In this document: in pieces, positions 56,401 to 58,903 of the stretch | How positions within the stretch are numbered: position 1 is the first letter of the stretch | How the letters are laid out: each line of letters starts with the position of its first letter | DNA from: an uncultured Alphaproteobacteria bacterium | GTDB lineage: Bacteria; Pseudomonadota; Alphaproteobacteria; CAAGCB01; CAG-977 | Direction: 5' to 3' | Length of the DNA: 64,000 bases | NCBI GenBank assembly: GCA_944391535.1 | Contig: CALXTY010000001.1 | Coordinates: 20 to 64,019 of the forward strand | Notes under the pieces: generated by a model | Told to the model about the DNA's origin: nothing | Database searches by the model: none | Seen by the model: only the letters and a program-made list of their open reading frames with translations | Translations under genes and position numbers: made by a program

Positions 56401-56476
56401 GGGGTTGTAGCTCAGTTGGGAGAGCGCTTGAATGGCATTCAAGAGGTCAGGGGTTCGATTCCCCTCAGCTCCACCA
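56401..56476 (+). tRNA. tRNA-Ala (anticodon GGC)
   Basis: Acceptor stem with the G3:U70 alanine identity pair, anticodon loop ATGGCAT, T-arm GGGGTTCGATTCCCC, and encoded CCA. Confidence 0.9.
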
Positions 56477-56483
56477 TAAAAAC

Positions 56484-56507
56484 CGCAGGAAACTGCGGAT
56501 TTTTTAT
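56484..56507 (+). terminator. Terminator hairpin after tRNA-Ala (CCGCAGgaaaCTGCGG + T6)
   Basis: 6-bp stem with GAAA loop, followed by ATTTTTTAT. Confidence 0.55.
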
Positions 56508-56625
56508 GCCTAAAAGAAAATGGTTAATTTTTAAGTTTTGCATTTTTTGACTATTTTTTGACCGTTTTGACACCTGAAAACATCTTCTTTGACAATCGAG
56601 AACCGTAAAAATTCTTTTGCGCGGG

Positions 56626-56785
56626 TAATTTCGGAAATTTCGATTTTAACAAAAGCAATCTGTCGTCCTTCTTACGGAATTTCGGTAATAAGGGAAACGA
56701 TAAACCTCTTTTCTTATTTTATCGGCGATTCTTGTGAAAGAGCTATCTTCGGTATTTTCGGGAAAACTCGGAAATCTCGTTTCAG
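56626..56785. repeat. Four copies of a TCGGnAATTTCG-like motif between tRNA-Ala and the HU gene
   Basis: The four copies are tcggaaatttcga, cggaatttcgg, tcggtattttcgg and tcggaaatctcg. They are spaced irregularly within 160 bp. Confidence 0.25.
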
Positions 56786-56791
56786 GCATAA

Positions 56792-56825
56792 AAAAGGCGC
56801 GTCCGAACGGACACGCCTTTATCTG
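56792..56825. terminator. Bidirectional hairpin terminator 3' of the HU gene (GGCGCGTCCgaacGGACACGCC flanked by A- and T-runs)
   Basis: 9-bp stem with one mismatch. A5 upstream and T-rich downstream. Confidence 0.45.
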
Positions 56826-56839
56826 TTTTTGAACCGGTA

Positions 56840-57112
56840 TTAGTTCAAGGCGTCTTTCAGACCTTTACCGGCTTTGAATTTCGGCTGTTTGGAAGCCGGA
56901 ATCTTGATTTTGGCACCGGTGCGCGGATTGCGACCTTCGGCCGCAGCACGCTTGGCAACGCTGAACGTGCTGAAGCCGACCAAGCGAACTTCGTCGCCTT
57001 TTTTCAATGTCGCGGCAACCGTGTTCAACAAGGCTTCCGTCGCTTTTTCGGAATCAACTTTCGTCAAGCCGGTGTTCTTCGCGATTTCAGCCACTAATTC
57101 TGCTTTGTTCAT
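56840..57112 (-). CDS. DNA-binding protein HU
   Basis: 90 aa. Contains MNKAELV, the beta-arm RNPRTGA and KIPA, i.e. the canonical HU/IHF fold signature. Confidence 0.9.
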   Translation of the reverse strand: MNKAELVAEIAKNTGLTKVDSEKATEALLNTVAATLKKGDEVRLVGFSTFSVAKRAAAEGRNPRTGAKIKIPASKQPKFKAGKGLKDALN

Positions 57113-57744
57113 AATGCAACTCCATAATCAAATATAAACAGAAGCACAGCTTATCCTTTTTTCAAGGTTTAAGCAAAGTCTTTTCTTGATTGTCAATGCC
57201 CTGTCGCTTAATAGAAAGGTCATTTTCCTTTTTCTAAATTGATACGTGAAACCAAAAAATATTGTCTAAACAAGAACAATGCATTATAATTACTCCTAAT
57301 AAGAAGTTGCAGTCCTATTGTATAGACTGTTTTTCCCTTCTTCTTTTTCAATATTTTTTAGAATTGAAAGGACGAATGACAATGGAAATATCAGTTTATT
57401 TAATCTGTTCTTCTTTTACAGTTTCTCTGGGCGGGAGATAAGAACAAATCTATACAATTGGACGAAACCCGAGAAGCTGTAAAAACGAAAAAAATCTCCC
57501 ACCAAAATAGAGGAGCCTTTTAATTAAGGCTCCTTTTCTCTTGATTGTCAATTCCCTCCGCCTGACGGAAGAAAAACGGTTTCCCCGACTTTCGCTCCGG
57601 TGTCGTTGCAAGCCGGGCGATTCCCCTCCTTTTTCTTGGAATGACAATCGCTTTCTTCTCCCCGACGAAGCACCTCGTAAGGGTTTCAGGCGCGACGCCA
57701 AAAACCCTTTAACAAGTGCTTTTTACAGAGAAGGAGCTTTCAAA

Positions 57745-58617
57745 ATGACTGATAAATTCGACCTCATCGAAACCGTTTCAAACACCATCATCGAACGTTT
57801 GGAAAACTTTTCGGGCGAATGGGAAAAGCCGTTCATTTCCTCTTTTGCCCGGAACATCACGACAAAAAAGGCTTATCGCGGCATCAATATCCTAATTTTG
57901 AACTTTGCCGCTTTGTTCAACGGATTTTCTTCGTCCGTTTGGGGAACTTATCGGCAATGGCAGGAAAAAGGCTATCAGGTCAAGAAAGGCTCAAAGGCGA
58001 CGACCATCGTTTTCTGGAAGCCGCTTTCGTATAAATGCGAAGTCGAAAACACGGAAACCGGGGACATCGAAGAAGTCGAAAATCAGGCTTTTGTCGCCCG
58101 CGCTTATTCCGTTTTTAACGGTTCGCAAGTCGAGGGATTCGGCGAAGACATCGAAAAAGCCGAATTTAGCGTTGAAAAGGACGTGATGGCGTTCTTTGAA
58201 AACACGGACATCACCTATTTTTACGGCGCGACTTTGGCAGGCTATGACCCGAAAAACAATGTTGTCTTAATGCCGGAAAGAAAAGACTTCAAAACGGAAA
58301 CCGGTTTCGTTTCGACTTTGGCGCACGAAACAATCCACGCGACCGGACACAAGAACCGCTTAAACCGGGATATGAAAGGCCGTTTCGGAAATGAATCCTA
58401 CGCCTTTGAGGAACTGATCGCCGACATCGGCGCGGGATTTGTCGCCGGATATTTAGGCTATGACTATCAATTCAGCAAAAACAACCTTGCATATCTTAAA
58501 TCTTGGCTCAAGGTTTTGAAGAACGACAAAAAGGCGATTTTCAAAGCCTGCTCCGAAGCGCAAAAGGCTTTTGACTATCTGCTGACATTTCAGGAAATCG
58601 GACGGGAAGCGGCTTGA
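57745..58617 (+). CDS. ardC: ArdC-family antirestriction protein (ssDNA-binding N-domain + zincin-like metalloprotease domain)
   Basis: N-terminal YRGINILIL, C-terminal HExxH (LAHETIHATGH). AAGGAG RBS lies 8 nt before the ATG at 57745 (the ORF track begins at 57541 upstream of the RBS). Confidence 0.75.
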   Translation: MTDKFDLIETVSNTIIERLENFSGEWEKPFISSFARNITTKKAYRGINILILNFAALFNGFSSSVWGTYRQWQEKGYQVKKGSKATTIVFWKPLSYKCEVENTETGDIEEVENQAFVARAYSVFNGSQVEGFGEDIEKAEFSVEKDVMAFFENTDITYFYGATLAGYDPKNNVVLMPERKDFKTETGFVSTLAHETIHATGHKNRLNRDMKGRFGNESYAFEELIADIGAGFVAGYLGYDYQFSKNNLAYLKSWLKVLKNDKKAIFKACSEAQKAFDYLLTFQEIGREAA

Positions 58618-58647
58618 CCGCTTCCCGCAAAAAGAGGAGAAAGGACA

Positions 58648-58809
58648 ATGAAGATTGCATTTTTCAGACTGACGGTTTACGGCGCGGACGGCTACGAAAA
58701 AGAACATTTCGATTTTCACAGCAAAGCCGCGCAACTGTCCAAATTTTACGAACTGATAGCGCAGGGCTACAAGCGCAACGATTTGGAAAAGACGACATAT
58801 TACTTCTAA
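58648..58809 (+). CDS. Small hypothetical protein (53 aa) downstream of ardC
   Basis: AGGAGAAAGG RBS and ATG at 58648. Product is MKIAFFRLTVYGADGYEKEHFDFHSKAAQLSKFYELIAQGYKRNDLEKTTYYF. Below the ORF-track cutoff. Confidence 0.3.
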   Translation: MKIAFFRLTVYGADGYEKEHFDFHSKAAQLSKFYELIAQGYKRNDLEKTTYYF

Positions 58810-58903
58810 AAAATTCGGGCAGACACGATGCTGTGTCCGCCCCATTTTTCGCCCGATGCCACACCCGATTGCTTCGCAATCCGCCCGAAAAAAAATTTGT
58901 TCT

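Follow-up and report, generated by a model that had tools for sequence, protein, structure and literature searches.

The window (the whole 64,000-nt stretch of DNA that was analysed) carries near its right-hand end a tRNA-Ala gene followed by a compact series of genes and structured sequences, whose features are as follows.

56401..56476, plus strand: tRNA-Ala(GGC) (ARAGORN; Rfam tRNA 66.7 bits)
56477..56839, plus strand: attL arm of the element (blocks kept relative to L023; terminator scan)
56483-56498: tRNA terminator hairpin within the attL arm (terminator scan)
about 56540-56563: two direct repeats of TTTTTTGAC within the attL arm
56840..57112, minus strand: element-borne HU family DNA-binding protein, 90 aa (Pfam Bac_DNA_binding, E=2.8e-33)
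57186..57207, plus strand: partial copy of the left edge of repeat R, TTGATTGTCAATGCCCTGTCGC, 74 nt upstream of the HU start codon (motif search)
57208..57540, plus strand: cargo slot 1, nearly empty, with a 333-bp AT-rich insert of GC about 0.33 (sequence comparison)
57509-57536: hairpin terminator ending the slot-1 insert (terminator scan)
57541..57763, plus strand: R1, one of two copies of the 223-nt conserved repeat R, the second copy (R2) lying beyond the window, upstream of orf137
57543-57649: hairpin I of R1, the structured core
57650-57737: hairpin II of R1
57729-57735: SD of R1
57745..58617, plus strand: ardC, anti-restriction protein family (Pfam and PDB alignment)
58648..58809, plus strand: orf53, 53 aa, 3' of ardC, intact in 7 distinct variants
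58817..58842, minus strand: GC-rich hairpin, terminator between the convergent orf53 and Shedu genes (terminator scan)
58904..60319, minus strand: Shedu SduA, slot-2 cargo (PADLOC E=9.3e-100; Pfam SduA_C 3e-27; GC 0.288)
60488..62242, minus strand: Gabija GajB, UvrD-like helicase, slot-2 cargo (PADLOC E=2.9e-196; GC 0.324)
62257..64000, cut by the window end, minus strand: Gabija GajA, OLD-family ATPase/TOPRIM nuclease (PADLOC E=1.1e-164)

The tRNA, HU, ArdC, the small ORF, Shedu and Gabija all lie where the first-pass annotation had placed them, and its description of ArdC as an ssDNA-binding N-domain joined to an HExxH domain agrees with the Pfam hits and the 6i89 alignment. The N-domain is ArdcN (DUF1738, PF08401, E=8.1e-33, residues 6-124), which is of the ssDNA-binding type, and the C-domain is a zincin-like MPTase-PolyVal (PF18818, E=1.2e-37); against R388 ArdC (PDB 6i89/6sna) the protein aligned at E=2e-46, with its HETIH matching the HEATH of 6i89. 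Judged by its sequence, the product is a member of the ArdC anti-restriction family with both domains present. Anti-restriction activity in the recipient has been shown for R388 ArdC, which is required there against HsdRMS (PMC7213743). orf53, a small conserved gene, had no Pfam, PADLOC or NCBIfam match; it was modelled by AlphaFold2 from the single sequence with a pLDDT of 92.9 as a beta-beta-alpha-beta fold, for which a PDB fold search returned no match (best E=0.55). SduA was recognised by both PADLOC and Pfam as a DUF4263 nuclease domain protein, as Shedu membership demands. GajA, with AAA_15 and OLD-like TOPRIM domains and a complete length of 661 aa in identical copies (L001-L004), is separated from GajB by 14 nt, as expected of a Gabija pair.

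Strain and species comparison placed the attL junction, and with it the start of the element, at the 3' end of tRNA-Ala(GGC); the 3' part of this gene is presumed to be the attL core. A comparison with genomes lacking the insertion had been proposed by the first-pass annotation, and same-species contigs were found to diverge from the window at 56477/56484 or within the T-arm, while a second host species is identical from the tRNA on, in keeping with its reading of a horizontally acquired region beginning at the tRNA. Its suggestion of a tRNA hotspot also held, since two further strains share the left flank of tRNA-Ala(GGC) and differ after the tRNA, which supports tRNA-Ala as an integration hotspot. 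Blocks of the attL arm are conserved relative to L023, a tRNA-Ala element of another species, despite diverged surroundings. CGGAAAT-type repeats also lie within the arm (56477..56839), and relatives have analogous arm repeats at both element ends; the attL-arm repeats are presumed to be binding sites for integrase, Xis or HU. The HU gene is found in relatives about 250 bp past five different tRNAs, at 81-97% aa identity, and beside the att arm HU probably acts as an architectural factor in integration/excision or DNA processing.

The GC content is 0.441 on the chromosome side (1-56400; 1-kb windows with sd 0.039 and minimum 0.365) and 0.435 in 56477-58903 (HU 0.516, ardC 0.463), against 0.319 in 58904-64000, where all 1-kb windows are at or below 0.357. 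Sliding-window analysis therefore confirmed the abrupt switch in composition between ardC and Shedu/Gabija that had been noted before, as a step at 58904 from 0.46 in ardC to 0.29-0.34 in the defence block.

Backbone and cargo were separated by blastn of 12 related elements, considered with their tRNAs and slot contents. By this comparison HU, R1-ardC-orf53 and R2-orf137-orf90-oriT-mobC-relaxase are shown to make up a conserved backbone, of which the last block follows the cargo. Homology stops at 58820-58823 in L019/L021/L029 and at 58901 in L020/L030, setting the left boundary of the cargo at about 58901. Because of their composition and the blastn results against relatives, Shedu and Gabija are recognised as low-GC foreign cargo nested in variable slot 2 of the element, between the ardC unit and R2. 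Slot 2 is mostly filled with other defence genes in relatives, whose elements include type IV REase-like, GmrSD-like, PDC-S01, PDC-S60, BREX and Cas13a-like genes; the adjacency of ardC and defence genes is a conserved architecture rather than a coincidence. The slot-2 cargo of relatives lies on either strand, and late-strand placement of defence genes is no rule of the family. Slot 1 ranges from 0 to 6.4 kb in relatives, with YolD/UmuC-like, UvrD-like, Cas13a-like, HEPN and protease genes, and the insert seen in the window was found in this element type alone.

In L001, from a second host species, the flank is 67.6-81.5% identical to that of the window, whereas the element matches at 100% (tRNA, attL arm, HU, slot 1, R1 and Shedu/GajB/GajA) except in a single 568-bp patch. 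All 30 differences fall in this patch, 58164-58731 in ardC-orf53, and the 20 nucleotide differences within ardC change only one amino acid. A near-identical element beside a 68-82% identical flank in two host species is evidence of horizontal movement, and the transfer between these two uncultured gut Alphaproteobacteria was very recent.

The first-pass annotation had spoken of nested or serial integrations, of which the nesting stands for Shedu/Gabija as a foreign insert and serial integration at the tRNA does not, HU and ardC belonging to one ICE backbone that is found behind seven tRNAs. Separate islands, HU-ardC and then Shedu/Gabija, integrating successively at the tRNA-Ala hotspot would fit the different DNA that different strains carry at this site and the sharp GC step at 58904. 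However, no att-like tRNA repeat occurs at the ardC/Shedu junction, the conserved backbone resumes past the cargo (R2-orf137-orf90-oriT-relaxase), and the whole block including cargo is 100% identical in the second host species outside the 568-bp patch, so that successive integration is highly improbable.

Since the window ends inside gajA, R2, oriT, relaxase, T4SS and integrase were read from other contigs, which match the window at 99-100% where they overlap with it. On such contigs, mobC and a PF03432 relaxase lie beyond the window. The oriT, in the orf90-mobC spacer, contains an inverted repeat followed by TATCCTGC, and an inverted repeat with [CT]ATCCTG[CT] is present on the minus strand at the homologous site in nine of ten elements; a MOBP nick consensus with a 5'-proximal inverted repeat has been described (PMC3772185). 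From this motif match we infer that the relaxase would nick at TATCCTG|C on the minus strand of the window, in the orf90-mobC spacer. T4SS and coupling protein genes (VirB4, B8, B9, B10, B11 and VirD4) were found in L002, L084, L151, L153 and L156, and relatives also encode a primase, an AlpA-like excisionase and a P4-type tyrosine integrase; orf137, orf90 and the 95-aa ORFs had no Pfam or NCBIfam family. The earlier assignment of ArdC to a conjugative leading region was borne out by the relaxase, oriT and T4SS genes just past the window on related contigs.

Relatives, whose far ends were reached by a metagenome scan and homologue searches, occupy at least seven different tRNA genes. Their attR is a direct repeat of the tRNA 3' end of 45-49 nt, found at tRNA-Thr (49 nt), tRNA-Arg(ACG) (45 nt), tRNA-Pro and tRNA-Gln(TTG), with an atypical attR in L153 that covers only nt 30-58 of its tRNA. 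Integrase groups specific for Arg(TCT), Thr, Pro, Arg(ACG) and Gln(TTG) were recovered from relatives, with none specific for tRNA-Ala among them, and the loci examined around ardC held no tRNA 3'-end repeat of the tRNA-Ala type. The search for an att repeat and mobility genes that the first-pass annotation had suggested thus succeeded for relaxase, T4SS, and the integrase and attR of relatives, but not for a tRNA-Ala 3' repeat, and we infer the integrase and attR of the tRNA-Ala element from the relatives. As in tRNA-site ICEs with P4-family integrase, MOBP relaxase and VirB T4SS, a complete tRNA at attL is paired in relatives with a 45-49-nt 3' repeat at attR, the integrase of relatives has Arm-DNA-bind_3 and Phage_integrase domains and is accompanied by an AlpA/HTH_17 excisionase, and mobC, a MobA/VirD2-like relaxase, a YATCCTGY nick motif by an inverted repeat, VirB2-B11 and VirD4 occur here likewise. 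Unlike in those ICEs, the integrase of relatives lies at the end distant from the tRNA, relatives as close as 82-99% aa identity in ArdC sit on these at least seven tRNAs with a matching integrase group each, and the hosts are uncultured gut and rumen Alphaproteobacteria; the element had no near match in PLSDB. It is very probable that 56477-64000 represents the tRNA-proximal (attL) end and leading region of one ICE in uncultured gut Alphaproteobacteria, and the whole element could by analogy be roughly 45-55 kb.

Because the oriT nick motif is on the minus strand, ardC would lie in the leading region and have the transferred strand as its template. The transferred minus strand would enter the recipient in the order orf90, orf137, R2, Gabija, Shedu, orf53, ardC, R1 and HU, so that ardC, orf53, orf137 and orf90 could all be templated by it, while Shedu, Gabija and HU, on the other strand, could be expressed only once the complementary strand is made; Shedu and Gabija might then protect the new host, and thereby the element. 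In plasmid leading regions, anti-defence genes are templated by the T-strand and ssDNA promoters are present (Samuel et al. 2024, PMC11541004; PMC12672017). As in these plasmid islands (PMC11541004), ardC here is near oriT on the first-entering side with the T-strand as template, UmuC/YolD-like genes and primase are nearby in relatives, and ArdC of R388/pSa (IncW) has the same two-domain architecture as that of the window; unlike them, the carrier here is an ICE and defence systems are interleaved with anti-defence genes. Both arms of the conflict are carried on one element, with an anti-restriction gene placed and oriented for entry and, on the other strand, exchangeable defence systems that would serve after establishment.

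Repeat R heads the ardC unit, and its right end takes in the first 6 ardC codons. The sequence upstream of HU recurs in L020, where it continues straight into a full R1. Folded as DNA, R has a z of about -5.7 to -5.8, strong on both strands, and its stems have compensatory pairs among copies. The core is built of three stems, P1, P2 and P3, and two conserved unpaired motifs, GTTTCCCC and GGGTGATNCCCCTCC. A descriptor search, followed by a check of complementarity, found it in distant Alphaproteobacteria and Acidobacteriota, upstream of ardC, primase and small ORFs, with fully covarying stems that include 9 unrelated yet complementary P2 arm pairs; the distant copies aligned too poorly in MAFFT to yield a covariance model, P2 being one column off. 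The core also precedes the primase gene in L054, and one copy is present in the cultured strain Palleronia rufa MOLA 401 (L071). Rfam had no match to R at E<=1 and none at gathering level in seven loci with distant copies, blastn of R against PLSDB gave no match, and five sequenced plasmids (Phaeobacter pP36_d, Dinoroseobacter pDSHI01, Marinovum pMaD6, pTiKerr27 and Novosphingobium pSA4) lacked the core ahead of ardC. Although the frame through R is open in the window (TTG at 57541), a reading of R as a coding extension of ardC was rejected, as copy lengths differ by non-multiples of 3.

R probably serves as a control module of the early units, either as an ssDNA hairpin promoter or as a structured mRNA leader. 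It is plausible, if still tentative, that the ardC and orf137 mRNAs carry R as their transcribed 5' leader and that the 5' edge of R holds an operator, much as in the CUP repeats of the IncN pKM101 leading region. In R, a palindromic 12-nt box, TTGATTGTCAA, would bind a repressor, and the folded leader, exposing CCUCC and pairing the SD in hairpin II, would control translation or stability. The repeat takes in the SD and the start codon, the SD pairing probability is 0.88-0.99 in the window family, hairpin II is almost without variation, P2 has one plus-strand G-U pair, and the box occurs again, without the remainder of R, ahead of HU and ahead of BrxA in L029; CUP elements are ArdK-bound sequences conserved ahead of leading-region genes (PMC6289460). 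Nevertheless, the box has no promoter-like -10 downstream, no candidate repressor was found, R has no Rfam family match, and SD sequestration by hairpin II in distant copies, outside the window family, is not consistently above shuffled controls.

That R is instead a single-strand (Frpo/ssi-like) promoter, in which hairpins I and II of the transferred minus strand recruit RNA polymerase so that ardC and orf137 are transcribed, and complementary-strand synthesis is possibly primed, before the DNA turns double-stranded, is conceivable but rather unlikely. The two R copies are each immediately upstream of a T-strand-templated leading-region unit, the R element is also ahead of the primase gene in L054, the DNA fold is strong (z = -5.8 on the minus strand), stem P1 includes a minus-strand TTGACA, a terminator precedes R1, and a simple consensus scan found no sigma-70-like -35/-10 pair, and hence no double-strand promoter, within R on either strand; similar hairpin pairs upstream of klcA and ardA in pESBL are experimentally supported ssDNA promoters (PMC12672017). 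Of 13 diverse copies, 10 have their more stable fold on the minus strand with RNA parameters and 9 with DNA parameters, which is a lean only, and counts of G-U against A-C pairs favour neither strand. On the other hand, Frpo/ssi hairpins rebuild -35/-10 boxes toward the downstream gene, and in R the hairpin is present and the scan showed no such boxes: no -35/-10 pair is conserved in the arm and orientation required for ardC-ward transcription, the TTGACA is at the hairpin base and directed away from ardC (by eye), and the unpaired motifs GTTTCCCC and GGGTGATNCCCCTCC are unlike promoter hexamers, while coverage of the SD and first 6 codons by the repeat is unnecessary for a promoter.

The two copies could also be functionless in themselves, a trace left by a duplication or by homologous recombination that imported the ardC-cargo block. 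R1 and R2 do evolve in concert (90-96% identity within one element, 76-81% between clades), and modules do recombine, as seen in the 568-bp conversion patch in ardC-orf53 and in cargo 99.7-100% identical on backbones with ardC 2-4% apart. Yet the sequence and structure of the core are kept upstream of ardC-type genes in distant Alphaproteobacteria/Acidobacteriota, with the 9 unrelated complementary P2 arm pairs, and hairpin II is nearly invariant and better conserved than the ardC coding sequence, so that a functionless footprint is very unlikely and appears largely refuted by covariation.

We tentatively suggest, with some reserve, that the R core (P1, P2, P3, GTTTCCCC and GGGTGATNCCCCTCC) could be an undescribed, widespread cis-element of conjugative elements heading 'establishment' genes (ardC, primase, small ORFs), as a new class of ssDNA promoter/priming site or a new structured mRNA leader, and that its duplication may also create a swap site for defence cassettes in the leading region. 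Like the Frpo/ssi promoters known from F and ColIb-P9 and the class 2 pair of hairpins in pESBL (PMC12672017), R is a repeated hairpin-forming element in the 100-300-nt range, just upstream of leading-region units that include an anti-restriction gene; unlike them, it is without a recognisable reconstituted -35/-10 pair and has a multi-stem core, two conserved unpaired motifs and an extension into coding sequence. The CUP repeats of IncN pKM101/R46 are likewise direct repeats and control modules upstream of several leading-region genes including ard, but they are ArdK operators and promoters in double-stranded DNA (Delver and Belogurov 1997, as cited in PMC6289460). In R, unlike in CUPs, the secondary structure is conserved, with covariation across phyla. 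R is short, covarying, has conserved loops and one copy in a cultured strain, and is therefore directly testable; it could give the still small list of ssDNA promoter classes a member from outside enterobacterial plasmids, or prove to be a regulatory leader of a new kind.

Being duplicated and conserved, R could also act as a homology anchor for cargo exchange. Delver and Belogurov reportedly proposed in 1997 that CUPs are recombination points in gene acquisition. Cargo hotspots of ICEs, such as SXT/R391, are fixed intergenic backbone positions with varying defence systems, and the slots described here share the fixed positions and varied defence, but are located in the leading region by anti-restriction genes and have the sharp edge of R on one side. 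They would provide defined places to seek new defence or anti-defence genes, including orf53, orf137, orf90, the 95-aa ORF and unannotated slot genes. In relatives, the cargo differs until 1-4 nt short of the first base of R.

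The island behind tRNA-Ala is very probably an integrative conjugative element (ICE) of an already known type: such elements enter tRNA genes by means of a P4-type integrase and encode a MOBP-like relaxase and a VirB-type T4SS, with ardC in the leading region and defence cargo in hotspots. The part that goes further is a 223-nt repeat, R, a duplicated and structured cis-element conserved across phyla and bounding the cargo slots, for which, as for its distant copies, no matching family was found in Rfam. Every feature named by the first-pass annotation (tRNA-Ala, HU, ArdC, a 53-aa ORF, Shedu and Gabija) was located where it had been claimed.

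Features in the window
53158-54171, left of the tRNA: DUF6782 putative metallopeptidase
54249-55490, left of the tRNA: 413-aa protein with weak PD-(D/E)XK and PDC-S26 matches
56401-56476, plus: tRNA-Ala(GGC)
56840-57112, minus: HU
57745-58617, plus: ArdC, with ArdcN and zincin-like domains
58648-58809, plus: orf53, a 53-aa ORF
58904-60319, minus: Shedu
60488-62242, minus: GajB
from 62257, running past the window end, minus: GajA

Residues 3-279 of ArdC could be aligned to the crystal structure of R388 ArdC (E=2e-46), with the HExxH motif kept. The abrupt change in composition proposed earlier was borne out by GC windows, which drop from 0.435 in the HU-ardC segment to 0.319 in the Shedu/Gabija block, where each 1-kb window is at or below 0.357. 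Compared with the chromosome side (GC 0.441; 1-kb windows with sd 0.039 and minimum 0.365), the block has a foreign composition. Left of the tRNA, 52486-55490 contains a Y1 (IS200/IS605-type) transposase and two further genes.

Same-species contigs with a left flank 99.7-100% identical to the window either break within the tRNA or go on with other DNA. One strain (L015, 1-641) matches the window to 56484 and then carries a GHKL/sacsin-like ATPase gene, and another (L012, 1-266) diverges in the tRNA T-arm, which is replaced, with a RepA_N-like ORF next. Since the left flank is identical and the DNA after the tRNA differs, the tRNA-Ala(GGC) site serves other elements too, in agreement with the hotspot suggested from the sequence. 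In a different host species with the same element (L001), identity to the window left of the tRNA is 67.6% for the methyltransferase gene, 76.5% for orf413 and 81.5% for the DUF6782 gene, and from tRNA base 1 on it is 100%, both in the backbone parts (att arm, HU, AT-rich spacer and R1, the R copy before ardC) and in Shedu, GajB and GajA; the sole differences within the element are 30 sites, all inside 58164-58731. The presence of one element with its cargo at one tRNA in two species shows that it was transferred horizontally not long ago, and defines where its left end lies. The att arm (56477-56839) has repeats unlike the arm-type ones of relatives, and these repeats are kept in L023, a tRNA-Ala element from another species.

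Contigs encoding the exact GajB of the window continue with GajA, a second copy of the ardC-upstream sequence (R2), a 137-aa ORF (orf137), a 90-aa ORF (orf90), mobC and a MobA/VirD2-type relaxase gene. Genes for VirB6-like, VirD4 and VirB11 proteins directly follow the relaxase in L002, while in L001 and L084 a cargo block (Res, Mod, DUF4391, SNF2 helicase, Mpi-like invertase) precedes the same T4SS genes, and this relaxase-to-T4SS interval is a third cargo position of the element. At L084 5361-9352, the Mpi-like serine invertase (NCBIfam E=1.9e-77) lies beside the SNF2 helicase/DUF4391/Mod/Res block. Further along, relatives encode VirB10, B9, B8, B4, B3 and B2, followed by a DUF3987/Toprim_3 primase, an HTH_17 excisionase-like protein and a P4-type tyrosine integrase, and about 330 bp beyond the integrase the 3' portion of the target tRNA recurs as a direct repeat, after which host genes begin.

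attR repeats in related elements
L158: tRNA-Thr, 49 nt, with housekeeping genes next
L160: tRNA-Arg(ACG), 45 nt
L162: tRNA-Pro(TGG) fragment
L163/L164: tRNA-Gln(TTG) fragment

These four attR sites reach the CCA end. In L153 (1330-1358), the att site by an Arg(TCT)-type integrase consists of tRNA nt 30-58 alone, then unrelated DNA. Arm-type repeats (GTCTAACAAnTGTCTAACA) occur in relatives near the integrase and 70-110 nt past the tRNA at the opposite end. The downstream mobility genes sought after the first pass were found in part, with relaxase and T4SS genes on contigs sharing the exact GajB, and integrase and attR in relatives; neither an integrase nor an attR of the tRNA-Ala type was recovered from the walked contigs of this element and its relatives. 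L053 (8313-10312) has an ardC reduced to residues 184-287 (78% identity), 1.6 kb away from a tRNA-Arg(ACG) whose downstream flank is native; this ardC may be a remnant of a decayed element.

Among 185,579 species genomes scanned for ArdC, close relatives (82-99% aa identity) occurred only in MAGs of uncultured gut/rumen Alphaproteobacteria. All of them share the order tRNA, about 250 bp, HU (minus), slot 1, R1-ardC, slot 2 and R2-orf137-orf90-mobC-relaxase, and the target tRNA varies among Arg(ACG), Arg(TCT), Ala(GGC), Thr(TGT) and Gln(CTG). One gene order behind differing tRNAs indicates that HU and ardC are part of the element rather than of the chromosome; in place of the serial integrations initially envisaged, a single ICE whose cargo slots are internal is the better reading. 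Slot 2 spans 5.5 kb in the window versus 0.5-3.1 kb in relatives, where it is empty or contains an HNH type IV REase-like gene, a GmrSD-like gene, PDC-S01, PDC-S60, a UvrD-like protein, an SF1 helicase with DUF2726, a SWIM protein, an MzaB-like ATPase or a BREX system. In L029 (12232-20519), BrxA (Pfam E=7e-46) is accompanied by four large ORFs, and part of an R edge (TTGATTGTCAATTCTCTC) stands ahead of them; the cargo that follows ardC there is probably a BREX system.

Slot 1 is almost empty in the window (57208-57540); relatives have YolD/UmuC-like genes, UvrD/NERD-like proteins or a Cas13a-like protein there, or else a protease together with a HEPN protein. The Cas13a-like protein (1063 aa; PADLOC PDLC02152, E=1e-112) is encoded between HU and R1 at L025 4067-7258 (minus), in a related ICE at tRNA-Thr of an uncultured Alphaproteobacterium. 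Upstream of HU in the window, the 22 nt at 57186-57207 repeat the left edge of R; similar edges occur in L025 and, upstream of BrxA, in L029, and in L020 the HU upstream region passes straight into a full R1. The 333-bp AT-rich insert between this partial edge and R1 (57208-57540) is unique to this element type. With TTGTCT-17-TATAAT (57262-57290), which resembles a promoter, and a terminator hairpin at 57509-57536, it may be a cassette for a small RNA or a peptide.

Cargo in both slots varies up to 1-4 nt short of R base 1. The Shedu/Gabija cassette is 99.7-100% identical across backbones that diverge by 2-4% in ardC and are also unlike in slots 1 and 3. Between the window and L001, the differences in the 568-bp patch covering the 3' half of ardC and orf53 (58164-58731) are nearly all synonymous (20 in ardC, 19 of them synonymous and one changing a residue). 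The patch resembles a tract of gene conversion with a diverged homologue as donor. Together, the near-identical cassette on differing backbones and the ardC-orf53 patch indicate that modules are exchanged by recombination.

R is present in exactly two full copies per element. R1 (57541-57763) begins at TTGATTGTCAAT and ends with ardC codons 1-6, and R2 ends with the same six codons at the start of orf137. The fold is strong on either strand (z ~ -5.7) and comprises two hairpins.

Hairpins within R1
57543-57649: hairpin I
57650-57737: hairpin II, in which the ribosome-binding site (SD) of ardC is paired

Within the family, 98.7% of cells in the named structure are paired versus at most 70.6% when partners are slid, and stems P1 and P2 show compensatory changes; that R is purely a recombination scar seems very improbable. 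R1 and R2 are 90-96% identical inside one element and 76-81% between clades, a pattern of concerted evolution.

Profile and motif searches recovered distant relatives of R ahead of ardC genes with no more than 35-43% identity. Among the Alphaproteobacteria, these are in Rhodobacterales (Palleronia rufa, L071, and L073) and in an unclassified MAG (L072); among the Acidobacteriota, they are in Bryobacter (L040), Bryobacterales (L052) and Acidobacteriaceae (L067). A second copy comes after ardC in L040, L052 and L054 (Parvibaculaceae). The element was absent from five sequenced alphaproteobacterial plasmids with ardC. A descriptor made of two conserved unpaired motifs, GTTTCCCC ... GGGTGATNCCCCTCC, matched 39 places, 29 of them distinct, across 2.13 Mb; every match was on the ardC strand, and shuffles gave none. 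In every match, the bases that immediately flank the motifs pair into a helix of 6 bp or more, and nine unrelated arm pairs are represented (e.g., AAGAAAAACGG/CCGTTTTTCTT, GGGGCGAAGGGG/CCCCTTCGCCCC, GCAGCCGG/CCGGCTGC and CAAAAAAGCGG/CCGCTTTTTTG); since flanking complementarity was left out of the pattern, it independently supports the structure. TCCCC is paired with GGGnGA, with C-G to U-A compensation in three copies. The genes following these elements are ardC, a 95-aa ORF, a DUF7146/Toprim_3 primase gene or orf137.

R could possibly, though we hold this tentatively, be an mRNA leader with an operator: it includes the SD and start codon, hairpin II is almost invariant, CCTCC is exposed, and a 12-nt palindromic box also occurs alone at other genes, the candidate repressor/operator box in R being TTGATTGTCAA. 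Nevertheless, SD sequestration in distant copies was not above shuffled controls.

The orf90-mobC spacer contains a conserved inverted repeat, followed about 2 nt on by TATCCTGC on the minus strand of the window; both occur at the homologous place in nine of ten elements, with about 1.6 such motifs expected per 15 kb. This agrees with the MOBP nick consensus (C/T)ATCCTG(C/T) and its layout, in which the inverted repeat is 5'-proximal on the nicked strand (PMC3772185). The relaxase has a weak MobP1 match, and its predicted nick-site sequence is GCTATCCTGCAAAA. If TATCCTGC is the nick, the minus strand would be transferred, with entry in the order orf90, orf137, R2, GajA, GajB, Shedu, orf53, ardC, R1 and HU; ardC, orf53, orf137 and orf90 would then have the transferred strand as template, and Shedu, Gabija and HU would lie on the opposite strand to this group. 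Such a transferred-strand template arrangement is known for leading-region anti-defence genes (PMC11541004), and R388 ArdC is required in the recipient to overcome HsdRMS (PMC7213743). From orientation and homology, we infer that the transferred strand may be the template for the ardC group and that ArdC may act in the recipient.

The place and orientation of R in the leading region would also suit a single-strand promoter, a rather doubtful reading to which the terminator ahead of R1, the slightly better folding of the transferred strand and the failure to find a double-strand sigma-70 promoter in R are favourable. A precedent comes from comparable pairs of hairpins ahead of klcA and ardA (PMC12672017). 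However, no -35/-10 pair was found in the arm that would direct transcription towards ardC. The leader/operator and single-strand promoter readings are not exclusive and can both hold. Frpo/ssi hairpins and the CUP repeats of pKM101 are closest to R in role, but R lacks the one defining feature of Frpo that could be checked.

On the Agrobacterium Ti plasmid pTiKerr27 (L169, 3998-7658), ardC and a gene of the HU family are 2.5 kb apart on opposite strands, which hints at a wider co-occurrence of HU and ArdC among alphaproteobacterial conjugative elements.
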